Virus record (IMG/VR): IMGVR_UViG_3300014838_000024
Coordinates: 1 to 56,671 of that record
From: a virus
Taxonomy: Duplodnaviria > Caudoviricetes
Length of the DNA stretch: 56,671 bases
Direction: 5' to 3' (one strand)
A program made the position numbers and the translations under genes. Positions 2,503 to 25,485 of this stretch are shown here, in pieces (the stretch's first letter is position 1; each line of letters begins with the position of its first letter). The notes beneath the pieces are model-generated. The model was not told the DNA's origin, searched no databases, and worked only from the letters and a program-made list of their open reading frames with translations.

Positions 2503-3213
2503 ATGCTCGTTTCAGATCTCTTCAGTAAGCTCTCTTTCGGAGAGCTCTCGAACCTGGCTATGTCAGGCAATGGCAGTGGTACGATCGTCACGGCTCAACA
2601 GCCTAAGCTGATCGGTTATGCCAATGATGGCCTCCTTCGGTTGCACACGAAGTTCGTCCTCAAGGAGAACGATCTCCTGTTGCAGCTGTACGAGCACATC
2701 ACGTTCTATCACCTGATCCCGAGGTTCTCGATCCAATACACTCCTCCGGTTGGGACGGTTAATGAGCCTATTCGCTACATCTTGGATTTGCCGGAAGAGC
2801 CTTTCAATGATGAATTGCTGAAGGTTACTACAATATATGATCATCTTGGAATGGAGATCCCACTTAATAACGAAGAGAAGCATAATTCGTGCTTCACTCC
2901 ACAGGTAAAGCTGCTACAAGTTCCTAACCCGGTGGATGAAAAGTTCCTCACGGTTCGGTATCAACAGCGTCACGCCAAACTTACAGGTGACTTGGAGCAA
3001 TATATCTCTCTCCCTGTATCGCTCGAAGAGGCGCTGACATCGTTTATCGCGTTCAAAGTGTTCAGCCACATGAACACAGCTGATAGCAACTCGAAAGCTC
3101 AAGAGTTCAATCAGACGTTTGAACAGCTCTGTGGTGAAGTGACGGACAGGGATCTGGTCAGTTCCAGCATATCTCAGTCCAACATCCGGTTTAGTAGAGG
3201 AGGTTGGGTCTGA
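2503..3213 (+). CDS. N4 gp67-like virion (head-tail adaptor) protein
   Basis: 236 aa directly after TerL, with LSFGELSNL N-terminus and RFSRGGWV C-terminus as in N4-like gp67. Confidence 0.75.
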   Translation: MLVSDLFSKLSFGELSNLAMSGNGSGTIVTAQQPKLIGYANDGLLRLHTKFVLKENDLLLQLYEHITFYHLIPRFSIQYTPPVGTVNEPIRYILDLPEEPFNDELLKVTTIYDHLGMEIPLNNEEKHNSCFTPQVKLLQVPNPVDEKFLTVRYQQRHAKLTGDLEQYISLPVSLEEALTSFIAFKVFSHMNTADSNSKAQEFNQTFEQLCGEVTDRDLVSSSISQSNIRFSRGGWV

Positions 3214-3560
3214 TGGGACTATGCGAAACCACCAATTATTTCGGCGGCCTTGGAGGTGAAACCCCTGGCAGGCCATACAGCTATGGGCAGGGAGGTTATC
3301 TCCAACCCTATGGTGGCGCTCGGTTTGCGCCCATGGTTGACCGACTCATTGGCAATGCTTTCCCCACTGTGAAGTTCGTCGCCGACAACATGGATTATAT
3401 CCGGTATGTCGCGGACAACATGCTAGCGATCGTCACTCTGGCCGAATCCCAGGCAACTCAGATAGCCACGCTTCAAGCGCAGATATTGGTGCTTCAAGCT
3501 CTGGTGGTCCCGAGTTCTCCGACGATTGTAGCCCCTGCTCTCTCCATGAGTTCAGATTGA
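3213..3560 (+). CDS. Truncated tail-fibre/appendage anchor protein (resembles the N-terminus of N4-like gp66)
   Basis: ATG at 3213 overlaps the gp67 stop (TGATG). MVDRLIGNAFPTVKFVADNMDYIRYVADNM resembles the virion-attachment N-terminus of N4-like tail fibres. It is followed by a short heptad segment and a stop after about 115 aa. Confidence 0.6.
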   Translation: MGLCETTNYFGGLGGETPGRPYSYGQGGYLQPYGGARFAPMVDRLIGNAFPTVKFVADNMDYIRYVADNMLAIVTLAESQATQIATLQAQILVLQALVVPSSPTIVAPALSMSSD

Positions 3561-3581
3561 GTTCGGATTGAGGAGAGCACA

Positions 3582-3953
3582 ATGGCCGAGGTGATCACGC
3601 CATATGAAACTCTGGAGGCGTTCCTCGTCGCTAATCCAGCGTCGAACCACTCCAGTTATGTGCTGACTCCTCCTCCAGCTCTCTTCTCCATTGGTGTCTA
3701 TGTCTCTGACGCTATACTTGAGCCGGTTCCGGGTGGGTTGAGTGTCTCTGTAGCAGATGCAGTGCTGGAACCTGTCGGTGGAACTGGTCCTCAACTAGCT
3801 TTTGGAGTCCCTTCACTCTCGTTCGCTTCCACAGCAGTGGGAGCCAATATCAACTTGACGGTGACAATCTCCAATCCGGGGACCGCCGATCTTGTGATCA
3901 GTTCACTGATCCCAACAGGTGACTTCACCGTCGCCACAATCGTAGAGGACTAA
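3582..3953 (+). CDS. Putative adaptor/scaffold protein: two tandem beta-strand repeats plus the N-terminal half of an ASH (choice-of-anchor D) Ig-like domain
   Basis: GAGGAG RBS; repeats GVYVSDAILEPV and SVSVADAVLEPV; C-terminus PSLSFASTAVG...TVTISNPGTADLVISSLIPTGDF. Confidence 0.65.
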   Translation: MAEVITPYETLEAFLVANPASNHSSYVLTPPPALFSIGVYVSDAILEPVPGGLSVSVADAVLEPVGGTGPQLAFGVPSLSFASTAVGANINLTVTISNPGTADLVISSLIPTGDFTVATIVED

Positions 3954-3957
3954 AGTT

Positions 3958-4374
3958 ATGGCGAATGCAGTCTATCCGAACTTCCGTAATGTTCTGCTCT
4001 CTCCGGGTGTGAACCTGGCGACGGCAGCTATCAAAGCCTGTCTTGTCACGCTCACCACGGGTACGACCAACTACACCTACTCGGCGGCCCATGCCAATCT
4101 GAGCGATGTCGCTTCGGGTTCGATCTTCGTTGCTGGTGTGGCTCTCACCTCCTTGGCGGTTTCTGCTCAGGCGCTGACCGCTGCTTCTGTCGTGTGGCCT
4201 TCGGTCGCAGTATCCGGCTCCAAGAAAGCCGAAGCGATCATTCTCTACATCGACACCGGCACGGGGAGCACTTCGACCCTGATCGGCTACATCGACACGG
4301 CCACTGGTTTGCCGGCTACGCCAACGGGTCAGAACATCACGCTGAATTGGTCTTCGTCCGTCCTGACCGACTAA
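3958..4374 (+). CDS. Small beta-rich virion fibre subunit
   Basis: 138 aa. MANAVY...AIKACLV...AEAIILYIDTG...TSTLIGYIDTATGLPATPTGQNITLNW matches a widespread family of small phage tail/fibre proteins. Confidence 0.6.
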   Translation: MANAVYPNFRNVLLSPGVNLATAAIKACLVTLTTGTTNYTYSAAHANLSDVASGSIFVAGVALTSLAVSAQALTAASVVWPSVAVSGSKKAEAIILYIDTGTGSTSTLIGYIDTATGLPATPTGQNITLNWSSSVLTD

Positions 4375-4404
4375 AGCTCGTCTCTCTGATCTGAAAACGA
4401 GCAC

Positions 4405-6330
4405 ATGACCGCACCCACAGTCGTAAGTTCTGCGTATCATCCTTGGACTGGCGCTTATCCGCTGGCCTCATCGAACACGTTTGACTCGACTGGCTGCGAT
4501 GGTGTGCTCGTTTTCTTTTTCACCCTTACGGGTGCTTCTTGGACACCTCCTCCGTCTTGTACCTATTTGGGACAGACGGCTACGCTTATTGGTCAGAGCT
4601 ATGTTTCGTCGCAGACTTCTGCGGGAACGCTCTATGCCTATATTGTTCGAGGTTTCACCCCCGGTTCCGGCACGCTTTCGGTCGCTCAGAGCTCGAATTA
4701 CGCTGACTCGGGCTGCGTCTACATCATTGGTCTGACTGGCACCCAAGCCACGCCAATTGGCAACTCGATCGTTCATGTTAGCGCCAGCCCGTCCGACACA
4801 CAGTCGGTCACTGCGTCTGCTGCCAATTCGCTCTTCATTGTGTTCGGTGGCGATGCTCAGGCCCCGTCGATCACGGTCACGCCTCCTTCGGGAGCGACAG
4901 CACTTCTCAACAACACCACAGCGACAAACAACCTGGGTAAGGTTCACAGCGTTACTGGTGTTTCTTCCGGAGCCAGTGTCTCCGAAACTTCGACGGCTCC
5001 TTACAACTACACTTCAACTGCCGTCATTGAAGTGCTTGGTTCTGGTGGTGGTTCTGGCATAAGCTTGACGCTGACGACACCTCTCTCGATTACGCCTGCC
5101 TTGGGCGCTGAGACGGTGACGATCCCGATCATTGTGAGCGCCAGTCCTCTGTCTTTGAGCCCGGCTCAGCTTTCAGGCAGTGTCACAGCACCTCTCGCCA
5201 TCACAACTTCGCCCTTGGCTTTGACCCTGGGACAAGGTGCAGGCACGGTTCTCGATCCTGTAGGGATCACGTCTGGACCCTTGAACCTTAGTGTTCTTCT
5301 TGGTTCAGGCGATAGCGTCACTCTCCCAATCATCATAAATTCTGGGCCTCTGAGTGTTCTCACTCAGCTGACGACACCGAGCTATTTGAGCTTCCCGCCG
5401 ATGGTGGCTGGGCCTCTTGCTTTGAGCGTTGTCCAAGACGCTGGAAATGTGATCCAGCCGCCTCAGATCTCGTCTGGGCCTCTCTCGTTGAGCGTTGGCA
5501 ATGGCGCTGGAAGCGTTCTCGTCACGCCGGTCATTTACTCCTACGGCCTAAATTTGAGTGTCGGGTTTATTCCCGGTGTTCCCAGTGTGATAACGCCTCC
5601 ACTGATCACCACGGCACCACTTTCGATCTCACCTCTGATGGACGCATCTGCGGTGATTGTTTTCCCTGACAACATCATCTCATGGCCATTGTCGTTGAGC
5701 ATAGGGTTCCCTGGACCCAGCAACGTAATCACTCCAGCCGTGATCACGGCTACGGCTTTGAATGTGGCTGTGAACAACCACGTTGGTGAAGTCGATGTCG
5801 CCATTGTGATCCAAGCTCCTCCTTTGTCGCTCTCGTTGGGGAACGGTTCGGGAAGCATCGCCATTCCGGTGGCTGTCTACAGTGCTCCCTTGAGTCTGAG
5901 TCTCGGGCTCACGCCGTTGAACATCATGGCACCAGTCTTGATCGTTGTGCCGCCTTTAAGTTTGTCTGTGCTCTCTTACACGGGTACGATCACAGACCCC
6001 TTGGGCATCTATGCAATCCCGCTGTCGCTCACCCTCGGGCTTCAGGTGGACACGATCATCCAGATCCCTCCTCCGATTCAAGCTCCGGCTTTGAATCTTG
6101 GGATCAATTTGACCCCTGGATACGTTTCGGACCCGGTGGGGATCTATACATTCCCGCTCTCTATATCCGTTGGTCTAGGTTCAGTGAACCTTCCAATCAA
6201 TCTCTTTGTCGATCCTCTGAAACTCTCCTGGGGTCGAGTTCCTCCTGTGTATGTTGATGCACCCAATCTGAACATCTTGGTCGGGCTTCAACATCCATTC
6301 ACTCATCCTCCGACAGTCGTAGTAGGTTAA
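4405..6330 (+). CDS. Fibre protein: N-terminal beta-rich (putative receptor-binding) domain, then about 18-19 degenerate 22-aa repeats
   Basis: About 210-aa S/T-rich globular domain, GSGGGSG linker, then repeats of xxxPLSLS(V/L)GxGxGSVxxPxxI. Almost no charged residues. Confidence 0.65.
   Translation: MTAPTVVSSAYHPWTGAYPLASSNTFDSTGCDGVLVFFFTLTGASWTPPPSCTYLGQTATLIGQSYVSSQTSAGTLYAYIVRGFTPGSGTLSVAQSSNYADSGCVYIIGLTGTQATPIGNSIVHVSASPSDTQSVTASAANSLFIVFGGDAQAPSITVTPPSGATALLNNTTATNNLGKVHSVTGVSSGASVSETSTAPYNYTSTAVIEVLGSGGGSGISLTLTTPLSITPALGAETVTIPIIVSASPLSLSPAQLSGSVTAPLAITTSPLALTLGQGAGTVLDPVGITSGPLNLSVLLGSGDSVTLPIIINSGPLSVLTQLTTPSYLSFPPMVAGPLALSVVQDAGNVIQPPQISSGPLSLSVGNGAGSVLVTPVIYSYGLNLSVGFIPGVPSVITPPLITTAPLSISPLMDASAVIVFPDNIISWPLSLSIGFPGPSNVITPAVITATALNVAVNNHVGEVDVAIVIQAPPLSLSLGNGSGSIAIPVAVYSAPLSLSLGLTPLNIMAPVLIVVPPLSLSVLSYTGTITDPLGIYAIPLSLTLGLQVDTIIQIPPPIQAPALNLGINLTPGYVSDPVGIYTFPLSISVGLGSVNLPINLFVDPLKLSWGRVPPVYVDAPNLNILVGLQHPFTHPPTVVVG
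5070..6290 (+). repeat. Degenerate protein-level tandem repeat (about 66 nt / 22 aa)
   Basis: Units such as TSGPLNLSVLLGSGDSVTLPIII, SSGPLSLSVGNGAGSVLVTPVI, QAPPLSLSLGNGSGSIAIPVAV and YSAPLSLSLGLTPLNIMAPVLI. Confidence 0.85.
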
Positions 6331-6331
6331 C

Positions 6332-6583
6332 ATGACCTGGACTCCAGGAAGCGCAGTAACTCCTCCGCTTACAATTCCCGCTGGTGAGAGCGTCACTGTG
6401 ACGGTGAAGTTCACCCCAACGGTGGCTGGAGCTCAGACTGGCTCGCTTGGAATAATGTCCAATGCTCCTTCAAGTCCAGATGCTCTACCTTTGTCAGGTA
6501 CTGGAACCAGTGGGACTACACCTGCACCAGCAGTTTCCCTTTCGGTCACTTCGTTGACCTTCCCCAGCACGGCGGTTGGATAA
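6332..6583 (+). CDS. Small linker protein: C-terminal half of one ASH domain plus the first strands of the next
   Basis: LTIPAGESVTVTVKFTPTVAGAQTGSLGIMSNAPSSPDALPLSGTG, then PAVSLSVTSLTFPSTAVG*. Confidence 0.7.
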   Translation: MTWTPGSAVTPPLTIPAGESVTVTVKFTPTVAGAQTGSLGIMSNAPSSPDALPLSGTGTSGTTPAPAVSLSVTSLTFPSTAVG

Positions 6584-8010
6584 TGGCTACTTCGGCTTCT
6601 CAGCGGATCACGCTTACAAACACCGGCACTGCTCCCTTGGTGATCTCTGGGATCACAGCTACGGGTGATTTTGCCGATGTCACCGACTATTCCGTGTCGG
6701 TTCTCGCTGGCGGTGTCTGCCATATCGACGTGACTTTCACTCCCCTAGCTGTGGGTTCTCGAACAGGTACGATCTCAATCGCCTCCAATGCGCCTGGATC
6801 TCCTCATGTCGTGACCTTGGGAGGCACAGCAGTTCCTGCGGTTTTGCCAAGGGTCTCTGCCTTGGGAAATCAGTTCATGGCTGCCGGTGCTCCCATTCGT
6901 TTGAAGAGCATCAATTGGACTGGTGGCGAAGGCACCAATTATGCGCCTCATGCTTTGTGGGCTCGTTCTTGGAAGAGCCAGCTCGATCAGTTCAAAGCCA
7001 TGGGTTTCAATTGCTTGAGGTTCCAGCTTTCTGGTGACTTCTGTGCGAATCCCTTGATCACATCCACAGCTATTGATCCCACGAAAAACCCTGATGTTGT
7101 GGGCCTTACGACCTTGGCTTTCTTGGATCTGATTGTCGCCTACTGCAACACGATCGGCATGTATATCGTGCTTGATCATCACAGGTGTTTTGCCTCTGGA
7201 GGCACAGGCACCGATGGTTGGCCAATGGCCGGTGGGGCAACTGGCTCTTATAGCCAGGCCCAGTGGATCACCCACTGGTCAGTGCTCGCCACTCGATATG
7301 CTTCCAGCACGGTGGTCATTGGTGCTGACGTTCACAACGAGCCCTATGCGATTGAGTGGGCTTATTGGGCTCCGATGGTTGAAGCCTGCGGTAATGCTAT
7401 CTTGGCGATTGCGCCAAATTGGCTGATCTTCGTCGAGGGTGACACCAATTGGACTGGTGCAGCTTATTACCCCACAGCAACGCTGACGAGCGACTCGATC
7501 TGGTGGGGTGGGCAGCTTATTGGCGCTCAGCCTGGCAACCGACCCATTGTGCTCTCGTCTCCCAATCATGTGGTCTATGCGCCTCACGAGTATGGAACAT
7601 CTGTATCTGGCCAGACTTGGCTGGCAACCTCATCGAGCGCACCTACTGGGTGGCCAAACAACCTTCAACCGATGTGGAGACAGCATTGGGGTTGGGCTTT
7701 CGAACAGAACATCGCTCCGATCTGGGTTGGTGAGTTCGGAGGACAGTTTGGTTTCGCCAATGCGACAGGTGCAGCCAATGGCAATGCCAATGCACCCACA
7801 GAGATCGTCTGGCTACAGACACTCATGAAGTATTTGAATGGTGATTGGAACGGAGACGGCACCAATCATCTCACTGGTTCGCAGTTGGGTATGTCATTTG
7901 CCTACTGGAATGACATGCTGAGCGGTGATACAGGGTCTCTAGTCATCGACAACGATCTCACAACGCCTCAGAGTGGCAAACTAGCCCTCCTCACCCCGCT
8001 CATCCCGTAA
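6583..8010 (+). CDS. GH5 endoglucanase (cellulase) with an N-terminally incomplete ASH Ig-like domain
   Basis: GH5 motifs: INWTGGE, MGFNCLRF, IVLDHH, DVHNEP (acid/base Glu), NWLIFVEG, WWGG, VVYAPHEYG, PIWVGEFGG (nucleophile Glu), SGDTG. No signal peptide. Confidence 0.93.
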   Translation: MATSASQRITLTNTGTAPLVISGITATGDFADVTDYSVSVLAGGVCHIDVTFTPLAVGSRTGTISIASNAPGSPHVVTLGGTAVPAVLPRVSALGNQFMAAGAPIRLKSINWTGGEGTNYAPHALWARSWKSQLDQFKAMGFNCLRFQLSGDFCANPLITSTAIDPTKNPDVVGLTTLAFLDLIVAYCNTIGMYIVLDHHRCFASGGTGTDGWPMAGGATGSYSQAQWITHWSVLATRYASSTVVIGADVHNEPYAIEWAYWAPMVEACGNAILAIAPNWLIFVEGDTNWTGAAYYPTATLTSDSIWWGGQLIGAQPGNRPIVLSSPNHVVYAPHEYGTSVSGQTWLATSSSAPTGWPNNLQPMWRQHWGWAFEQNIAPIWVGEFGGQFGFANATGAANGNANAPTEIVWLQTLMKYLNGDWNGDGTNHLTGSQLGMSFAYWNDMLSGDTGSLVIDNDLTTPQSGKLALLTPLIP

Positions 8011-8019
8011 GAGGGCTCC

Positions 8020-8370
8020 ATGACAACCGCACAAGAAGCCAACTTCACTGTTACTCTGACCCCTGCTCCTACGGTTACAGTGCTGCTCAACTACACCACA
8101 AGGGATGGAACGGCCACTGCTGCCAGCGGAGCTTACACTTTAACTTCAGGAGTGTTGACCTTTGCTCCAGGTGAAACCGTGAAACACGTCATTGTTCCGG
8201 TCAGTCTGCCTCTTGCGCCAGGTTCTGCCGCTGAACTCTTCTATCTCGATGTGACTTGGCCTTCTGGTTCGGTTAACACGATCACACGCAGTCCAGGTAT
8301 TTGTAACCTTCCAGGCAATACAACTACCCCACTGCCTTCTGTCTCTATCTCTAGTCCTTCGGTGGTGTGA
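8020..8370 (+). CDS. Calx-beta domain protein lacking its first strand and ending in a Calx-beta-like first strand
   Basis: FTVTL...VLLNYTTRDGTATAASGAY...SGVLTFAPGETVKHVIVPV; C-terminus LPSVSISSPSVV. Confidence 0.85.
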   Translation: MTTAQEANFTVTLTPAPTVTVLLNYTTRDGTATAASGAYTLTSGVLTFAPGETVKHVIVPVSLPLAPGSAAELFYLDVTWPSGSVNTITRSPGICNLPGNTTTPLPSVSISSPSVV

Positions 8371-8373
8371 TCC

Positions 8374-11199
8374 ATGACAACCTTCAGCACAACTCGTATT
8401 GCAAACTTCGTGGTCACGCTCAGTGCAGCGGCCACGGCAGCTTGTTCGGTCAATTACGCCACGGTCGATGGAACTGCCATTGGTGGAACCGACTACCAAG
8501 TGACCACGGGCGTTTTGAACTTCGCCATCGGTGACATCACCAAGACGATCCCTGTGCCTTTGAATGCACTTTCGGTTGGTGGGCTCACTTTCGATATGCT
8601 CTTGTCCTCTCCCGTGGGCTGCACGATCACCACTGGCGAAGAAGGCATCGCCACCATTGGCGTCGTCACTCCTCCGGTCACGTATTTGAGCCGGTTCGAA
8701 TGGACCTATAATACGCTCAAGCTGACCACGAACGGCTATTTTGGTCCCACCACGGGAGGATCTACCCTCGCCTTTCAGTGCCCTTACCATGCACGCGAAA
8801 ACGCTATTATCGTTGAAGCTCCTGACTGGTGCCATGAGAGCGTTTCCGAGACGATCTCTTTCTGGGCCAAACTGGAAGCCTGGAAGACGATTGTCGATGG
8901 CACAACCACAGGCATGGCTGCCTGCTGGGCTTCGATCGAGGCGAATTATATTCCCACTCCCACAGTTGGTCAGCTTTGGGGAGCTTATACTCCTGCTTCT
9001 CCCGCAGGTTATGAGCCTGACGCTGCCACGATCGCTTTGACCCCGGTTGATTACAATACGACAGTGACGGTTGGCGCTGATCCGCTCTACACCGAGCTCG
9101 TTGCCGCCTACACCGGCAAAGACGTGTATCTGATGCACTGGCTCTATGATGTGGACGGAGCCTATGGTTTCCATGGCGCTGATGGCACCACAAAGCTCAT
9201 GGCTCCGATCAACAACTACCAACGTGGCCCGGTCGAAGATGGCTTGGCCACGATCACGCACTGTTGCTACGAGGACTACAAGAACGGTGGTCAGCCTATT
9301 GGTGCGAGCGGGTTTGGCTTCTTGCCAATTTATGACCAGGCTCCTCCGACTTATTCGAGCAGCGCCAACCCCTACTCTTACAGCGCCCAGTGGACGTATT
9401 CTTGCGCCCCTGACGCTGAGAGTCGGGCTATTGGAGCCATCTATGCGGCTCACACGCTCTCTACGGCGGCAGGCATTGCACCTATTGCCACGAAGTCTAT
9501 GAAGATGGCCGATTATATGCGGTACGCCTTCTACGACAAGTACTTCGTGCCGATCCACAATTATGCTGGCACGCTCATGAATGGTGCTGGCAAACACTAT
9601 CTGCTCAGCTGGGGTGCTGGCTTTGGTGGCGGCATCATCGTGCCTCCAGGCACGGCTTCCTATTGGGGCTTTCGCATTGGTTGTTCAGAGGTTCACTTTG
9701 GGTACAACTGCGTCGATGTGGCTTATGCCTGCATGACGGGGCAGGATTTCGCGCCTCTGGGAGCCACAGCTGCTGCTGATTATGCGACATCCTTGGATCG
9801 ACAGCTTGAATTGATCCGTTGGCTTCAAAGCCCTGCTGGACCGATTGCTGGTGGTGTGACCTCCAACTGGAAGGGTGTCTATGGCACCCCGACAGATGCT
9901 CGTGTGAGCGCCCAGTTCTATGGGATGAACTACACTTATTCTCCGAGCTGGCATAACCCGCCTTCGAACAACTGGACTGGCTATCAAGCATGGGGCCTCG
10001 GAAAAGTCTCGCAGCTTTATGCGACAGTCTGCCAGAAGACCGACACAGTGTCGTTGAGCCTGATCACTCGCTGTGGTGTGATCTTGGATCTGTGGGTTCA
10101 GTGGTTCTACACCAATTGCGTAATGGACCTCGTGAACGGTTCGATGGCCTATCCGATCAACTCGTCCTGGACGAGCCCTACGGTTGTGAGTGGTCATACT
10201 TCGACAGTTGCCACAGCAGCGGGTGACTATGAGTATTTGCCCACGTTGAACTGGGACTCGACTGGAAATTACGCTACCTTCTGGTCGGCGAGTGCTGTCC
10301 CGAACCCGAACCTGCTCTATACGACCACATCGACTGGCTGGGATCCTGGAACAGCTGCTGGCTTTGCTCAGGTTCTCATCCAGTATGCTTATGCCAAGTC
10401 CAAGCTCACTGGTTCTTTGACGGGTATAATCCCCGGAGGAACAGCTACATTCCAACAAGTGCTGACCAAAGCCCAGCAAATGATGGAAGTTGTCTGGTGG
10501 AACCAAGATCCAGTTGGGTTCGGTTCCATTGGTTCGCTTGCTCTTCCGAGACTGAACGACATTCTCTGGATCCCGACTCAGTTTGGGACTGGTGCAATGC
10601 CTAATGGAGAAGTGCTCGCTCACGGTGTGACGACTTTCAAGAGCGCCAGAATGAGCCTCTATTCGACGACTGCCAACTGGTCTGGTGTGCAGACCTATCT
10701 GGCAGCAGTTGCAACGGCTTATCCGACGATCTCTGGTATGTGGGTGGCCAATAACGCTCCTGCTTTGAACGCTGCTTTGAATACGATCGCAGCTGACACG
10801 ACACTTCCGATCGCTCCTTCGGTCAACTACCATCGGTTCTGGAATGGTGCTGATGTGGCTGTGGCTTTCGCTATGTTCCAGCAGTATTTCCCGACACTGG
10901 CGGTGCCCACATTCACCACGCCTTTCTCGCCTTGCTGGGTCAATGCTCAGATCAATTACGCTGTGTTCTTGGCGACAGAGTATGGATCCACCACAACCAC
11001 CAGAACAGCAGCAAAAGCTGCTTGTCTGACGGCTTTGACCAGCACTCTAATGAGTGGAGCTCAGGTGACTGCCATGACAACGGCAATCAACACCTGTGTC
11101 GATGCTTGTGTGGCAGCTCTGGCCACCCCAGCGACCTATGCAACGGTGTCAGCAGCGGCAATTGCCACGGGTATTACGGCTGCACTCGCTGCAATGTAA
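8374..11199 (+). CDS. Calx-beta + glycoside hydrolase family 48 (processive exo-cellulase-like)
   Basis: GH48 motifs in order: PYHARE..IVEAPDWCHESVSE, YLMHWLYDVD, INNYQRG, QWTYSCAPDAESRA, KMADYMRYAFYDKYF, HYLLSW, FRIGCSEVHFGY, SLDRQLELIRWLQS..GPIAGG, FYGM, YHRFW..DVAVA. N-terminal Calx-beta VNYATVDGTAIGGTDY. Confidence 0.93.
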   Translation: MTTFSTTRIANFVVTLSAAATAACSVNYATVDGTAIGGTDYQVTTGVLNFAIGDITKTIPVPLNALSVGGLTFDMLLSSPVGCTITTGEEGIATIGVVTPPVTYLSRFEWTYNTLKLTTNGYFGPTTGGSTLAFQCPYHARENAIIVEAPDWCHESVSETISFWAKLEAWKTIVDGTTTGMAACWASIEANYIPTPTVGQLWGAYTPASPAGYEPDAATIALTPVDYNTTVTVGADPLYTELVAAYTGKDVYLMHWLYDVDGAYGFHGADGTTKLMAPINNYQRGPVEDGLATITHCCYEDYKNGGQPIGASGFGFLPIYDQAPPTYSSSANPYSYSAQWTYSCAPDAESRAIGAIYAAHTLSTAAGIAPIATKSMKMADYMRYAFYDKYFVPIHNYAGTLMNGAGKHYLLSWGAGFGGGIIVPPGTASYWGFRIGCSEVHFGYNCVDVAYACMTGQDFAPLGATAAADYATSLDRQLELIRWLQSPAGPIAGGVTSNWKGVYGTPTDARVSAQFYGMNYTYSPSWHNPPSNNWTGYQAWGLGKVSQLYATVCQKTDTVSLSLITRCGVILDLWVQWFYTNCVMDLVNGSMAYPINSSWTSPTVVSGHTSTVATAAGDYEYLPTLNWDSTGNYATFWSASAVPNPNLLYTTTSTGWDPGTAAGFAQVLIQYAYAKSKLTGSLTGIIPGGTATFQQVLTKAQQMMEVVWWNQDPVGFGSIGSLALPRLNDILWIPTQFGTGAMPNGEVLAHGVTTFKSARMSLYSTTANWSGVQTYLAAVATAYPTISGMWVANNAPALNAALNTIAADTTLPIAPSVNYHRFWNGADVAVAFAMFQQYFPTLAVPTFTTPFSPCWVNAQINYAVFLATEYGSTTTTRTAAKAACLTALTSTLMSGAQVTAMTTAINTCVDACVAALATPATYATVSAAAIATGITAALAAM

Positions 11200-11228
11200 A
11201 CTGAGTTCTTCAAATATACGTCTAATTT

Positions 11229-11264
11229 GGGGGAAGCTTGTACAAAGCTTCCCCCTAGTTATTT
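11229..11264 (+). terminator. Probable intrinsic terminator after the cellulase module
   Basis: Hairpin GGGGGAAGCTT-GTACA-AAGCTTCCCCC followed by TAGTTATTT. Confidence 0.65.
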
Positions 11265-11282
11265 AGAGTTGTACTCAAGGTC

Positions 11283-11311
11283 TATTGTACTTCTTCTGAA
11301 CCAGCTATAAG
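11283..11311 (+). promoter_or_regulatory. Candidate sigma70-type late promoter
   Basis: TATTGTAC...CTATAA in an AT-rich intergenic gap between a terminator and the next operon. N4 late genes are transcribed by host RNAP. Confidence 0.35.
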
Positions 11312-11341: not shown

Positions 11342-11713
11342 ATGGCTGATCAATGGCAGACAGGGGTAATACCTCCGAACGCAGCTGACGTGCAGACGAC
11401 CCCCAATGAGCTGACCGTTTTGACGGATGGCTCCATTGCAGGAGCGAACCTGGTTACGAACCAGAACGCTGCCATCGGAACTTCGGCGACACTCATTGTT
11501 GCTGCTCGTCCTGGAATTCCCGGTGTCGGGCGAAAGAGCCTCACGATCACCAACAAGGGTTCTAGCCCGGTCTTCATCGGCAATGCCGGTGTGACGGCTG
11601 CCACAGGCACCGAGATTCTGCCCGGCACCTCCAGAGATTTCATTACCTTCGTGGCGATTTACGGCGTCGTGGCTTCGGGCACTGGCTCTGTCGATTACGT
11701 CGAAATTTTCTGA
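11342..11713 (+). CDS. Small beta-sandwich virion protein (spike/decoration-like)
   Basis: GAGGTG RBS; RKSLTITNKGSSPVFIG...TGTEILPG...IYGV pattern seen in small phage structural proteins. Confidence 0.55.
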   Translation: MADQWQTGVIPPNAADVQTTPNELTVLTDGSIAGANLVTNQNAAIGTSATLIVAARPGIPGVGRKSLTITNKGSSPVFIGNAGVTAATGTEILPGTSRDFITFVAIYGVVASGTGSVDYVEIF

Positions 11714-11725
11714 GGAGAACCTCCA

Positions 11726-12250
11726 ATGGCCGACGATACTTCAGGCGTGATCTCTGCTGATCCGATCATTGTCAACACTGGCATTGATCCAAATGGGATC
11801 GTTCGTGAGAACTCCCCTCGTCGTCAGAAGAGCGAGATTGTTTGGCGGGATGCCGCCAACAACATCTGGAAGACCAAGCTCTATGAGGGTGGCCCTACTG
11901 GTGGTGAAACCAGTGATCTTGAACTCGTGAGTTCAGCCACCCCTGGTGTTCTGCCGGCTGGTCCTGTGCCTGTTCCAGTTTGCCCGTATCCTCCGATGCT
12001 CATCCAAGAGCTCAAATACGTGCAGGATGTCGGCCTCAAGTCGAGGCTCTCTCCCAAGAGTACTTCTGGCGTCAAGACTGGCCAGATTTATTGGCGGGAT
12101 CTCGCCAACAACCTTTGGCTCACCGAGTCTTTCGAAGACATCGCCAAAGAGACCTTCTCCGTGGACACCCTTATTGCAGCTGCCGTTCAGGGGGTTCCCC
12201 CGGCTGTGCCTGTGGTGTCTCCCATTCCCACTTCATCTTCTACCAGCTGA
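11726..12250 (+). CDS. Hypothetical protein with an internal domain duplication
   Basis: GAGGAG RBS; IVWRDAANNIWKTKLYE versus IYWRDLANNLWLTESFE, each followed by a Pro/Val-rich tail. Confidence 0.7.
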   Translation: MADDTSGVISADPIIVNTGIDPNGIVRENSPRRQKSEIVWRDAANNIWKTKLYEGGPTGGETSDLELVSSATPGVLPAGPVPVPVCPYPPMLIQELKYVQDVGLKSRLSPKSTSGVKTGQIYWRDLANNLWLTESFEDIAKETFSVDTLIAAAVQGVPPAVPVVSPIPTSSSTS

Positions 12251-12258
12251 GGATTACC

Positions 12259-13263
12259 ATGACCGATTGGGCCAAGATCGTACGAGGCATATCGCCCGGA
12301 GCTGCTGAACATATCGTTGCAATGATCGCTGATCATGCAGACGAAGTGTTCCCCAGATATGGGATCACTACTATTCGTCGTCAGGCTTGTGTTTTGGCTC
12401 ATATGAGTGTCGAGACACAGGGCTTCACCAAGCTCGAAGAGAACCTGAAATACTCGGCTGAGCGTTTGCTCGAAGTGTTCCCGACACACTTCAACCGTGA
12501 GCAGGCCGAAGCCTGTGCTCTCGTGCCGCAATTGATCGCCGATCGGGCTTACGATGGTCGAATGGGCAATCGTCCTGGTTCAGACGATGGCTGGTTGTTC
12601 AGAGGCAAAGGTCTCTGGGAATGTACTGGTCGCTCCAATGGAGAGCTCATCGCCAGGAAGTTGGGGATCACCCCGGATCAAGCAGCTGTTTGGCTGATCC
12701 ATCCTGACCATGCTCTCGAATGTGTCGGCGCTCTCTTTCAGATCCTGAAGGTTGCTCCTTCAGCCGACTCGGGCAATGTCACCGAGCAGACCAAACATAT
12801 CAATGGTGGTCTAAACGGCCTCTATGAGCGGGAATCCGCTTATACGAAGGCCCTTCGTCTTCTGAATTTGGAAGGTGCTAACAAGCGTGTTGCACTCACC
12901 GAACAAGACACTCCCGAACTTCAATCTTCCGTGAACGATCTCCGTGAAGACGGATCTCGCACCATCAAAGGAGCCGACCAGTCCCAGAGAGGATTGATTG
13001 GTGCCCTTGGTTCGGTTGGAGGCGCGACAGCGGCTCTCTCTCAGGTTCAAGACACTGCCAACCAGGTCCAGTCTGCTGTTCAGACTGTACAGTCTGGTGG
13101 TGCTCTTGTCCCTTGGGCTCAGACTCATTGGCCTTTGATCTTGGCCGGAGTGGCTACTGGTTTGGCGATCTTCTTCGCCTATCGGGCTTGGCAGGGTGCC
13201 AATGCCGTCAAGCTGGCTCGTGTCGATGACGCGAACACCGGCCTCAACCCCACGAGGATATGA
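12259..13263 (+). CDS. Endolysin, GH19 (chitinase/lysozyme-like), with C-terminal transmembrane region
   Basis: Likely start is ATG 12259 after GAGGA. Motifs LAHMSVETQGF..EENLKYSAERLLEVFP, YDGRMGN..DGWLFRGKG..TGR, TKHINGGLNGLYER. C-terminal hydrophobic WPLILAGVATGLAIFFAY. Confidence 0.88.
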   Translation: MTDWAKIVRGISPGAAEHIVAMIADHADEVFPRYGITTIRRQACVLAHMSVETQGFTKLEENLKYSAERLLEVFPTHFNREQAEACALVPQLIADRAYDGRMGNRPGSDDGWLFRGKGLWECTGRSNGELIARKLGITPDQAAVWLIHPDHALECVGALFQILKVAPSADSGNVTEQTKHINGGLNGLYERESAYTKALRLLNLEGANKRVALTEQDTPELQSSVNDLREDGSRTIKGADQSQRGLIGALGSVGGATAALSQVQDTANQVQSAVQTVQSGGALVPWAQTHWPLILAGVATGLAIFFAYRAWQGANAVKLARVDDANTGLNPTRI

Positions 13264-13694
13264 TGCTTGCACTTCTCGGCCCTTGGGCTTCGGTGGCCTC
13301 AAGTGTGTGGTCTTTCGCAACTTCCCGCATTGGGAACGTGCTTCTGGCGGCGACAGTCGCTTATGGTGTTGCTCATTTCCGTGAGGAATACGCCTGGAAA
13401 AAGAGCCTAATAGCTCAGGAAGTCGCTCTCAAAGCGGCTCATGCCGAAGAGCTCGCTCGTGAAACTCAAGCGAGTTCTGAGATTGCAGCTGCGGCCACTT
13501 CTCGTGTCGTGGAAGACGAAGCTGCCGTCACCTCGATGCAGCACCAAATCGACCTTCTCAAAGCTCTGGAGCCCATCAATGTCCCGTCCCTCAAGTCTGC
13601 TCCTTGTTCTCTTGACAGCATTTTCGCTAACAGCGTGCGCGAGTTCGACGCAGCTGGTGCTCGAAAGACCAAAACTTCCGGTCGCTCCCGCTGA
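13260..13694 (+). CDS. Inner-membrane spanin (Rz-like)
   Basis: N-terminal hydrophobic segment, coiled coil and C-terminal Cys. Follows the endolysin and overlaps a lipoprotein gene. Confidence 0.7.
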   Translation: MMLALLGPWASVASSVWSFATSRIGNVLLAATVAYGVAHFREEYAWKKSLIAQEVALKAAHAEELARETQASSEIAAAATSRVVEDEAAVTSMQHQIDLLKALEPINVPSLKSAPCSLDSIFANSVREFDAAGARKTKTSGRSR

Positions 13695-23451: not shown

Positions 23452-25485
23452 ATGGCTGAACTCACTTGGCGTGATGTTGCCGCCCCTGATTTCTCGGGGG
23501 CTATGCGAGGGTATCAGATCGCTGGAGATCAGATCACTCAGGCCGGAAAAGGTCTAAGTGATGCTCTCGGCAACTTCGACACGACCAGAAAGAACGACGC
23601 TGCCAACGCTATTTATCAAGCGTCGATGAACTATAAAGACCCTGCTGCTTTGCACGCTGCAATGGCTGATGGATCTCTCTATGCGAAAGCTGGTGTGGAT
23701 CCTTCTCTGATCACAGCTGATGCGAACAAGGCTCTCGACAATCGTGCTGGTCAGCTTCTGAACCAATCAGTGACACAGACGGCTCTCGACCAGTCCAAGC
23801 AGATGAACCCTCTTCTGGTGGATCAAGAGAAGCTGAAGAATCAGCTTGCTCAAGGCACTCTGGCTGCGAACATTGCTCAGCCGGGGCTGGCCAATGCTTC
23901 GACTGCGGCTCAGACTGCCAGAATATTGCAGGACAACTCACAAAGTGGAACCAGGTTCCATGATGAGCAAGTTGCTCAGGCTGACGAATTGGCTGCGAAG
24001 CGCCGTGCTGCGGATATTGCTCAGAGCACAGGGTCTTATGCTGAGGGTCTGGGTAAAATTGCTGACACAGCCAATGGTGGTGAAGACGACATCGACGGTG
24101 GTACTCGCGCTAGGATGATTGCTAACTACCCTGCGCTCTATCGGCAGTTCCATCCGGATGCCACTGACATCCCTGGTTCAAATGGGGTTTCTGCAAATGG
24201 TGCTGGTGGTGGAGGCGCTCCTGGAAGTGCAGCTGCTATTGGAGCTCAACTAGCTGCTTCGGTAAATCCCAATCTTGCTGGACCTTCTGACAGCTACAAT
24301 GCCATGACCAGAAAGATGGAGAGTGGTGGCAATCCTAATGCACATGCCACGACGGGTAGTGCAGGAGGACTCTACGGCTTTACGAATGACACCTGGAAGG
24401 GTGTCATGGCGAACCATCCCGAGTTGGGTTTGACGGCTGCTGGGAAGATGGACCCTGGACAGCAAGAAAAAGCTATGCAGGCTCTCACGAGCGACAACAG
24501 TAAATCGCTCAAGGCTGGTGGCGTTGAAGCCACTCCAGCGAACCTGCGTATGGCGCATTTTCTTGGTGCTCCTCAAGCGACCAAGTTCCTCAATGCGATG
24601 GGCAATGATCCCAATGCAGATGCTTCTTCGCTGTTCCCCAAGGAAGCAAAAGCGAACCCGACAATCTTCAATGGGAAGACGCTTGGTCAGGTTTATGCTG
24701 CTCAAACCGCAGGTTTTGGTGGGGTCATTCCTCCAGATCTCGTAGCGAACAGTCAAAATCAATCTAATCGTGCCATCGAGCTGTTGAGCAACATTGACAC
24801 GAAGACCAACCAAAATAATGCGGCAGGTATTCAGGGTAACTACTCTGAGGCTATGGCTGATACTAAAATGGATATGGCTGGAGCTGTCAAAAAGCTTCAG
24901 CAAGGTAGGTTTGGTAATGCTGATCCTACTCTTCTTGCTCAAGCCGTCCGTCAAGTAATCACGCAAAGCAAAACAGAAGGCAATGTTGAAGTAAATCCTG
25001 CCACTGCTGCGGCAATTCTTGATAGATCTTCTGATGTTCACTCTGGACCATTTGGTGGACTCAATCCTTACAACTTTGGGCGTCAAAGTATTGATACTGA
25101 CGAGGATGCTCAGACAGCTGAGTTGGCAAAAATTGGTCAAGGTGAGGCTCAGAAACTTGCCCAGTCGAATGCTGGCCATGCTGCGCTTGCTGCGAAACTT
25201 CAAGCTGCCATGGCTGCAAAGAACCAGGCCCAGAACGAGCTCTTCCAGGCTCAAAAGGACTCGACGACTCGACAGATGGATCCTGCGATCCTGCAAGCGA
25301 AGCTCGACAAGTACAATCGCATGTCTCAAGCGATGGAAACGATCCTTCGGGCGAACGGTCCAAATTATAAAAAGGACGGGACTCTTGCTGAAGGTCCAAC
25401 GACACCTTCGTATGCACCAGTAAAAACAAAAACACAGAAAGCCCTCGATGAAGCAGTAAGCCCTAAGTGGCTCAAAGAAGGCTAA
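23452..25485 (+). CDS. N4 gp51-like ejection protein with a lytic-transglycosylase-like domain
   Basis: MAELTWRDVAAPDFS N-terminus; central MESGGNPNA..SAGGLYGFTNDTW..MAHFLGA; lies just before the vRNAP gene. Confidence 0.75.
   Translation: MAELTWRDVAAPDFSGAMRGYQIAGDQITQAGKGLSDALGNFDTTRKNDAANAIYQASMNYKDPAALHAAMADGSLYAKAGVDPSLITADANKALDNRAGQLLNQSVTQTALDQSKQMNPLLVDQEKLKNQLAQGTLAANIAQPGLANASTAAQTARILQDNSQSGTRFHDEQVAQADELAAKRRAADIAQSTGSYAEGLGKIADTANGGEDDIDGGTRARMIANYPALYRQFHPDATDIPGSNGVSANGAGGGGAPGSAAAIGAQLAASVNPNLAGPSDSYNAMTRKMESGGNPNAHATTGSAGGLYGFTNDTWKGVMANHPELGLTAAGKMDPGQQEKAMQALTSDNSKSLKAGGVEATPANLRMAHFLGAPQATKFLNAMGNDPNADASSLFPKEAKANPTIFNGKTLGQVYAAQTAGFGGVIPPDLVANSQNQSNRAIELLSNIDTKTNQNNAAGIQGNYSEAMADTKMDMAGAVKKLQQGRFGNADPTLLAQAVRQVITQSKTEGNVEVNPATAAAILDRSSDVHSGPFGGLNPYNFGRQSIDTDEDAQTAELAKIGQGEAQKLAQSNAGHAALAAKLQAAMAAKNQAQNELFQAQKDSTTRQMDPAILQAKLDKYNRMSQAMETILRANGPNYKKDGTLAEGPTTPSYAPVKTKTQKALDEAVSPKWLKEG

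Follow-up and report, generated by a model that had tools for sequence, protein, structure and literature searches.

Cellulose as the first receptor of a phage has been in print since 2022, and phages that carry an enzyme of glycoside hydrolase family 5 (GH5) next to one of family 48 (GH48) are already known as a kind. A commentary on Knecht et al. (2022) relates that Erwinia phage S6 encodes two glucosidases, gp095 and gp094, that the GH5 part of gp095 degrades carboxymethylcellulose, that infection requires cellulose synthesis as well as its activation by cyclic di-GMP (c-di-GMP), and that Congo red inhibits infection (PMC9544554). The architecture of gp094 is named there as Calx-beta plus GH48 (PMC9544554). 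The cellulose dependence of phages S6 and M7 is restated in two further papers (PMC11512310, PMC13101476). Cellulose-synthesis genes have also been reported as phage requirements in Klebsiella and Vibrio. Here, a GH5 and GH48 pair is described at positions 6583-11199 of an uncultured virus, IMG/VR record IMGVR_UViG_3300014838_000024, whose whole length of 56,671 nucleotides is referred to as the window. The two enzymes are probably borne on tail appendages as a cellulose depolymerase pair (GH5 endo-enzyme plus Calx-beta-GH48), with cellulose as the first receptor. An unusual feature is that the module is split into more open reading frames (ORFs) than in cultured relatives.

The GH5 and GH48 enzymes

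The initial annotation had assigned two genes of the window to these families and had listed catalytic motifs kept in both. The assignments hold far beyond chance, and all of the motifs are present. The two genes are:

6583 to 8010, plus strand: P0001, 475 amino acids (aa), GH5 (PF00150)
8374 to 11199, plus strand: P0002, 941 aa, Calx-beta domain plus GH48 (PF02011)

P0001 matched PF00150 at residues 109-414 with an E-value of 1.7e-37 (129.9 bits, cut-off 23.5). Its N-terminal immunoglobulin-like (Ig-like) domain was recognised as DUF1573 (1.5e-07), as HYDIN/VesB Ig (6.4e-07) and also as the ASH type. The closest solved structures by sequence were CelE2 (8fc0, 8.9e-64) and the Acidothermus endocellulase E1 (1ece, 3.1e-60). 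The catalytic residues E253 (HNEP) and E384 (GEFGG) were invariant in 12 aligned relatives and aligned with E570 and E689 of S6 gp095, which are the residues named for that protein in the commentary (PMC9544554). An AlphaFold2 (AF2) model with a mean predicted local distance difference test (pLDDT) of 73.5 showed strands and helices in alternation, and the (beta/alpha)8 barrel of the family is its putative fold. P0001 is a predicted GH5 endo-beta-1,4-glucanase.

P0002 matched PF02011 with 2.1e-128 (430 bits, cut-off 25) and Calx-beta with 3.7e-09. The GH48 profile was covered from position 1 to 619 in three stretches (1-460, 443-605 and 591-619) within one open frame free of stops, and the protein is laid out as a Calx-beta domain (residues 1-95), the GH48 domain (about 104-840) and, at the C-terminus, a helical extension (about 853-940). 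By sequence, the best solved match was Cel48A of T. fusca (4jjj, 7.1e-84); CelS and Cel48F were also matched. E159 of the IVEAPD..SE region and D347 of the APDA region were invariant in 40 aligned relatives. E159 aligned with E155 of S6 gp094 and D347 with the residue mutated in the T. fusca D224N structure 4jjj; the 'Asp331' of gp094 in the commentary (PMC9544554) is Asp334 in the gp094 translation used here. The AF2 model of P0002 (pLDDT 85.7, predicted template modelling score (pTM) 0.80) was submitted to Foldseek and matched 14 solved GH48 entries with an E-value of 3e-47 and TM values, by target, of 0.90-0.92; the targets included 1g9j, 4el8, 5yj6 and 4jjj, with Cel48F, CelS and the GH48 of CelA among them. 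According to this model, P0002 has the (alpha/alpha)6 barrel fold of GH48, and it is a predicted member of this processive cellobiohydrolase family. The division of labour between an endo-acting and a processive exo-acting enzyme is textbook cellulase synergy. The GH5 enzyme would open cellulose chains internally, and the GH48 enzyme would act processively from chain ends.

Both enzymes had been called full-length, which applies to the GH48 with its coverage of profile positions 1-619 but only in part to the GH5, as the N-terminal region usual for it is encoded by separate ORFs. In agreement with the claim that neither protein has a signal peptide, none was evident by eye in P0001 or P0002, no predictor having been run. 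The hydrophobic start of P0002 aligned with Calx-beta strands in 40 of 40 aligned relatives and was modelled as a strand. At the other end of the protein, residues 853-940 (window positions 10930-11199) form an Ala/Thr/Cys-rich extension in which four helices were modelled with a low pLDDT of 55-73. Among the matches listed, this extension was common only to P0006 (99% identity) and P0007 (66%), both likewise of 941 aa.

No described phage GH48 was known to the initial annotation, and a claim to the first one would be wrong, as gp094 of S6 is discussed in the 2022 commentary (PMC9544554) and a GH48 protein search of 50,697 phage records returned 17 records, all from Erwinia phages, with 39.0-39.8% identity at 88-89% query coverage. 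The carriers include the N4-like phages S6, phiEaP8, Fifi067, Kuerle and Pastis and the 147-149-kb myoviruses Hena1 and pEp_SNUABM_01. The search of viral databases proposed at the outset hence led to Erwinia carriers, with the gene of S6 in the same slot. The corresponding GH5 search returned 34 records, including phages of Serratia, Klebsiella and Pseudomonas besides those of Erwinia. No near-identical DNA was found by megablast of positions 6583-11199 against the same records.

The phage genome and its appendage module

The window corresponds to the whole IMG/VR record, which is linear and has an estimated completeness of 77%. Judged by its genes, it represents the greater part of an N4-like phage genome, from a phage that is uncultured; the assignment to Schitoviridae was made because of the virion RNA polymerase, an intact ORF of 3754 aa (phrog_2206, 2343 bits), and the N4-type structural genes. 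The latter comprise an N4-type portal (phrog_1216, 4.6e-252), terminase, major head and tape-measure-like proteins matched in PHROG. The major capsid protein was 72.7% identical to that of Erwinia phage phiEaP8 in a comparison with N4-like phages of Erwinia, Achromobacter and Rhizobium. The GC content is about 0.48-0.56 across the window, and the appendage region (4-14 kb) is slightly richer in GC.

A chimeric assembly was ruled out. An independent contig of 16,409 nucleotides (nt), obtained from a freshwater run of another study, covers positions 3200-11300 unbroken with 185 substitutions in 8101 positions. It differs by 8 gap letters in all, located at 4773-4816 and summing to zero, and has no indel at any ORF junction. 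Because this contig covers the whole module, the assembly is regarded as sound. Pieces at least 99% alike were recovered in runs from permafrost and from peat, and one permafrost run may be the source sample itself. Runs X6 and X7 contributed short contigs (21 and 19 of 30 bins covered), and the habitat assignment leaves out runs X8-X20, with shares of at most 0.20.

Between 2.5 and 13.3 kb, the genes form a tightly packed run on the plus strand. Around the two enzyme genes, it consists of:

2503 to 3213, plus strand: virion structural protein, homologue of S6 gp097 (phrog_2125, 3.5e-72; 42% identity to gp097 over 236 aa), left border of the variable appendage region
3204 to 3560, plus strand: 118-aa ORF (phrog_29955 appendage, 3.7e-07; phrog_12242 tail protein, 3.6e-06)
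3582 to 3953, plus strand: 123-aa ORF, weak Ig-like match to phage GH5 tail hydrolases (phrog_18474, 6.2e-05, profile positions 278-331)
3958 to 4374, plus strand: 138-aa ORF of an uncharacterised phage family (phrog_644, 1.3e-23)
4405 to 6330, plus strand: P0003, 641 aa, N-terminal domain (about 1-210) followed by about 20 'PLSLS'-type repeats
6332 to 6583, plus strand: P0005, 83 aa, half Ig domain (ASH, 4.2e-06, profile positions 60-97 of 98), linker and C-terminal strand
8020 to 8370, plus strand: P0004, 116 aa, stand-alone Calx-beta domain (2.8e-09) between the GH5 and GH48 genes
11342 to 11713 and 11726 to 12250, plus strand: two ORFs of 123 and 174 aa (best PHROG match phrog_30212, 0.0011)
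12259 to 13263, plus strand: endolysin (phrog_181, 7.5e-42), right border of the module

The pair had been placed in the tail-fibre slot between gp67 and the lysis cassette. Its location in the appendage region was borne out, but the 116-aa Calx-beta ORF stands between the two enzymes, and the endolysin follows about 1 kb further on, at 12259, after two more ORFs.

P0003 is a putative fibre or shaft protein that would carry the GH5 enzyme. It showed weak PHROG matches to minor tail proteins (1e-05), and its atlas neighbours were viral hypothetical protein clusters only. In a related locus, L019, a single ORF of 767 aa combines a P0003-type N-terminal domain, repeats, the half Ig domain and the GH5 domain; the N-terminal domain is 50% identical to that of P0003 over 378 aligned positions. 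A search with the P0003 N-terminal domain found two relatives, one of which was this L019 fusion. The GH5 relatives also matched the PHROG 'tail protein' family phrog_5717 (3.9e-47).

Further upstream, the 118-aa ORF matched residues 12-78 of S6 gp096 with 40% identity and resembles the N-terminus of appendage and tail proteins; it is likely a tail-attachment adaptor. No Pfam match was obtained for the 123-aa ORF that follows it. In a second contig (record 10) of the freshwater run X2, 709 bases at 3243-3953, comprising both small adaptor-like ORFs, are replaced by 733 unrelated letters, and the same contig diverges from the window at 4025-4204 as well. Variants living side by side seem to exchange the part of the module that serves attachment.

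On the lysis side, the two ORFs at 11342-11713 and 11726-12250 had no Pfam match, and the marginal hit to phrog_30212 was their sole match in PHROG; they may be part of the appendage module or of the lysis module. The endolysin ends in a hydrophobic stretch resembling a membrane anchor, and the ORF at 13260-13694 has a hydrophobic N-terminal segment and no family match. When the lysis proteins of S6 and Fifi067 and the downstream ORFs of L019 were compared with the window, the portal alone was matched. Outside the module, a 677-aa virion protein at 23452-25485 combines a transglycosylase-like segment (phrog_4067, 9.4e-20) with a tail-fibre-like part and is a second cell-envelope enzyme, one that the particle probably contains.

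Spread of the pair, host and function

A clustered-protein search for GH48 gave 203 matches, the best 120 of which were examined. Within these, the first 98 (P0006-P0103) were 36-99% identical to P0002, had mostly about 790-850 aa and contained PF02011 together with PF03160. From P0104 on, identity was mostly about 30-34%, and the matches were beetle, fungal and actinobacterial enzymes, many of them with CBM2. In a FastTree phylogeny of 31 phage-type and 14 cellular GH48s, a branch with 100% local support divides the two sets. The GH48 of the window grouped with P0007 in a subclade of 13 rows that includes a Segnochrobactraceae copy, and the Erwinia phage enzyme fell into the other main subclade. 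The phylogeny had been suggested as a way to find the donor lineage; it delivered a separate phage-type clade but no donor that could be named, since the tree was rooted at midpoint only.

The pairing of the two enzymes was consistent. A GH5 domain was located upstream of the phage-type GH48, on the same strand and at a distance of 0.3-3.5 kb, in 18 of 18 loci (14 from IMG/VR and four from GTDB genomes). Not all of these are independent, as L013 and L024 are one element, L019 and L020 are near-identical, and so, apparently, are L011 and L026; L014, L015, L016 and L021 are S6, Hena1, pEp_SNUABM_01 and phiEaP8, respectively. Natural fusions of GH5 and GH48 were present among the matches listed, namely, P0090 (1326 aa) and P0092 (1643 aa). 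In P0008 (1397 aa), a phage-type GH48 is fused to an SGNH/GDSL esterase. A scan of viral contigs with the single P0002 sequence gave no match, and an alignment query was needed to find the loci. A metagenome scan with the GH5 alignment yielded 80 loci, of which L101-L103 alone reached at least 44% identity, the others being distant and mostly cellular GH5s.

The cassette was also found in four bacterial genomes: a Segnochrobactraceae isolate, Rhodoblastus acidophilus DSM 142, Azorhizophilus paspali and Azotobacter beijerinckii. All four contain BcsB (PF03170), compared with 2 of 14 control genomes. In the Rhodoblastus element (L024), an ORF of 620 aa at positions 6123-7985 of that locus lies between GH5 and GH48. 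It has a Calx-beta start, collagen-like Gly-X-Y repeats and repeated 'GDFYLD..YGPK' units, and resembles a fibre protein that was inserted between the enzyme genes.

For both enzymes, the closest relatives with a name belong to Hyphomicrobiales, with 50% identity to Segnochrobactraceae for the GH48 and 54% to Rhodoblastus for the GH5. This gives modest support to the alphaproteobacterial host that had been proposed. A tRNA scan of the window found no genes, so that no host clue came from tRNAs.

The position of the genes, the types of N-terminal domains in the proteins, the fusions of GH5 to tail-type regions and the S6 precedent make it most likely that the enzymes belong to the tail appendages. 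By analogy with S6, both would sit on tail appendages, where they would bind and cut the host cellulose secreted via the Bcs machinery and let the particle reach the outer membrane. The earlier idea that an endo- and an exo-enzyme together attack cellulose of the host agrees with the published S6 case, and attachment to the virion would follow by that analogy.

Several points weigh against a receptor-degrading appendage. The GH5 ORF has 475 aa compared with 727-844 aa in cultured relatives and is devoid of their N-terminal region of 275-440 aa; its attachment therefore hinges on an unproven interaction. The genes adjoin the lysis region, which is compatible with a release of the enzymes at lysis. 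The BcsB comparison covers no more than 4 carrier genomes, and many Pseudomonadota have BcsB. As GH5 is polyspecific, another beta-glucan is possible as a substrate. Finally, gp094 of S6 is itself termed 'predicted' in the commentary (PMC9544554).

Some of these observations would fit the main, though unlikely, alternative, in which both enzymes are soluble late proteins, freed at lysis, that dissolve the cellulose matrix for the escape of progeny and their spread to neighbouring cells. The location just upstream of the endolysin and the compact GH5 ORF are in line with it, as is the weak support from a complex prediction of P0005 with the P0001 N-terminus (see below). On the other hand, both proteins open with beta-sandwich modules of the type fused to tail-attachment regions in relatives, and the GH5 domain of L019 is on one polypeptide with a P0003-type N-terminal domain. 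S6 reportedly needs cellulose to infect and not merely to spread. A secretion signal was not evident, though lysis would free the proteins regardless.

Improbable, too, are virion depolymerases for a different substrate, such as another beta-glucan, an exopolysaccharide or modified (phosphoethanolamine) cellulose. Besides the polyspecificity of GH5, such a role could be accommodated by the phage-type GH48s, which form a separate clade, are about 30-33% identical to characterised cellulases and have a predicted activity. It is made less likely by the best solved matches of the GH5, CelE2 and E1, which are true endocellulases, by the conserved catalytic Glu and Asp and the conserved fold of the GH48, and by the BcsB of all four carrier genomes. 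The reported cleavage of carboxymethylcellulose by S6 gp095 points in the same direction (PMC9544554).

The cassette extends beyond Erwinia to a large, old and phage-specific GH48 clade in phages of peat, permafrost and freshwater, and to elements inside Alpha- and Gammaproteobacteria that bear cellulose synthase. As the clade is widespread and GH5 is always adjacent, it looks as if many phages of soil and water use bacterial cellulose as a receptor. For biochemistry, the clade is furthermore a source of GH48 enzymes that are compact and module-free.

Split domains and comparison with known systems

Four of the five ORFs between 4405 and 11199 are in one reading frame, and P0005 (6332-6583) is in another. 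P0005 ends with ..SLTFPSTAVG and a stop that overlaps the start of P0001 as TAATG; P0001 then begins with MATSASQRITLTNTG, which corresponds to profile position 18-20 of the next Ig-like domain. Continuous relatives read ..SLSFPSTEVDDVSDALSFTITNIGT.. across this junction, so that one Ig domain is shared by two polypeptides and cut after its first strand. The C-terminal strand of P0005 is the missing first strand of the Ig-like domain of P0001. The half Ig domain at the start of P0005 was 57.6% identical to that of L019, and its first half was sought upstream in other frames and not found.

A similar arrangement precedes the GH48. The C-terminal tail of P0004, ..LPSVSISSPSVV, resembles a first Calx-beta strand, and the Calx-beta domain of P0002 begins at profile position 23, i.e. 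without this strand. P0004 is in frame with P0002, separated from it by TGA and one codon before ATG. In L019 and L022, too, a small ORF with a tail resembling strand A stands before the GH48, in frame in L019 and in another frame in L022. In a whole-library phmmer search with P0004, each of the 150 best matches was a giant protein of 1005-7043 aa with multiple Calx-beta repeats.

The break in the Ig domain recurs. In the Rhodoblastus element, ..ALTFPDTTVG and a stop are followed by MATSAAKDVTLTNIG, with the spacing TGAAATG and an offset of +1 instead of -1. Five further clusters start with M-[A/P]-T-S-A at the same residue, one of them 98% identical and four (P0129, P0131, P0133 and P0134) 52-55% identical. 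The half-Ig start of P0005 is found again in the GH5 ORFs P0127 and P0128 (77% identical in the catalytic part), P0152, P0153, P0159 and P0177. The 80 loci of the GH5 metagenome scan, mostly distant, supplied no further split junctions.

Three technical or regulatory causes of the splits were considered. A programmed frameshift at 6581-6585 was discarded, as there is no slippery heptamer and the Rhodoblastus element would need +1 where the window needs -1; this differing offset makes a shared frameshifting signal unlikely. Read-through of the TGA at 8368-8370 is possible in the window and in L019 but not as a general mechanism, since the ORFs of L022 are in different frames. A sequencing error was dismissed in view of the independent 16,409-nt contig and the intact 3754-aa ORF.

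It is also very improbable that the module is decaying, i.e. that the breaks between P0003, P0005 and P0001 and between P0004 and P0002 are recent disruptions of two long genes that left the enzymes off the virion. The Ig domain is indeed split over two frames at 6581-6585, P0005 begins within a domain and most relatives have one continuous ORF. Yet the same break point occurs in five further clusters and, with the other frame offset, in the Rhodoblastus element; the half-Ig start recurs in six proteins, and the tail of the Calx-beta ORF in L019 and L022. The independent assembly, which differs at 185 of 8101 positions, has no junction indels, and the catalytic residues are intact. On the simplest reading, the split ORFs are real proteins that would be translated separately by coupled translation, with module borders that fall inside Pfam domains.

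A rather doubtful extension of this reading is that the upstream tails complete the downstream domains in trans and dock the enzymes on the fibre, as a reusable socket for exchange between phages. Stop and start codons overlap at one junction (TAATG) and are close together at the other (TGA, 3 nt and ATG), which would couple translation of the partners. A complex prediction for residues 1-95 of P0001 with P0005 scored 0.37, and the best of three controls 0.00, which lends weak support; the runs agreed in at least 99% of contacts, and the partner pLDDT was at least 56. When the tool was calibrated, 51 of 78 solved complexes passed, as did 2 of 108 mismatched pairs. Scores of at most 0.60 comprised 5 of the 78 solved complexes and all four passing mismatches (of 180), so a pass in this range is usually wrong if the pairing was not likely beforehand. 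Halves of a split domain may moreover pass through their likeness to solved Ig folds. Docking is further called into question by the GH48s of S6, Fifi067, Hena1 and others, which start at the same strand-B position although no donor tail precedes them, just the C-terminus of the GH5; it may be that the domain can do without its first strand.

In chaperone-usher pili, an Ig-like fold whose edge strand is missing is completed by donor-strand complementation, the strand being supplied by another polypeptide. The pili lack the last strand and receive an N-terminal extension, whereas in the window it is the first strand that is absent, and the donor would be a C-terminal tail. The literature found on phage tail fibres held no mention of 'strand complementation', which is a weak sign that the idea is unpublished. 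If true, split-domain docking would be a new way of hanging exchangeable enzymes on phage tails.

Compared with cellular enzymes, namely, the GH48s Cel48F of C. cellulolyticum, CelS of C. thermocellum and Cel48A of T. fusca as well as E1 of Acidothermus, the catalytic domains and residues are alike, as are the folds, modelled for the GH48 and presumed for the GH5. Unlike the phage enzymes, the cellular cellulases are secreted and carry CBM2 modules or dockerins; the phage enzymes have Ig-like and Calx-beta modules, neither CBM2 nor dockerin and no evident signal peptide, at about 30% identity. Although GH48 in cells otherwise typifies cellulolytic members of Actinomycetota, Bacillota and Chloroflexota, it is hardly credible that the pair is metabolic cargo recently acquired from a cellulolytic bacterium and unrelated to infection, given the fully supported separation of the 31 phage-type from the 14 cellular GH48s (FastTree, midpoint root), the identity of about 29-35% to the latter, the Calx-beta architecture peculiar to the clade and the position in the appendage slot.

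The window most resembles phage S6 (vB_EamP-S6; Schitoviridae, Waedenswilvirus), which is likewise N4-like and has the gene order gp097, gp096, gp095 (GH5), gp094 (GH48), holin and endolysin. The GH5 regions are 42.6% and the GH48s 40.7% identical, the catalytic Glu residues are aligned, and the GH48 of S6 also begins with a Calx-beta domain devoid of strand A. The differences lie in the modules around the enzymes. S6 gp095 is a single protein of 782 aa with two full Ig-like domains before the GH5, and the counterpart of its Ig-rich N-terminal attachment region is spread over P0003, P0005 and P0001 in the window instead of forming one polypeptide. S6 has neither a stand-alone Calx-beta ORF nor the C-terminal helical extension of the GH48 (809 compared with 941 aa). 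Similarity between the lysis proteins of S6 and the window was not detectable. The host of S6 is a gammaproteobacterium, whereas the nearest named carriers of the window's enzymes are Alphaproteobacteria.

The group of Hena1 and pEp_SNUABM_01 (Vequintavirinae, Erwinia myoviruses of about 148 kb) also has adjacent GH5 (729 aa) and GH48 (806 aa) proteins, with 45% and 39-40% identity to those of the window. These phages belong to another family and virion type, and their pair is found among baseplate and tail-fibre genes. The presence of the same pair in these myoviruses shows that both genes travel together from one phage lineage to another.

The enzymatic branched tail fibres of other Schitoviridae offer a last comparison. 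In G7C (gp63.1 and gp66) and Pectobacterium phage Possum (gp66 and gp67), an enzyme-bearing fibre is mounted on an adaptor and directed at a surface polysaccharide (PMC9569702). Their genes occupy the same genomic slot as the pair of the window. The enzymes of G7C and Possum are SGNH deacetylases that modify O-antigen, and they attach via N-terminal 'tail spike attachment' domains and not via split Ig-like or Calx-beta domains.

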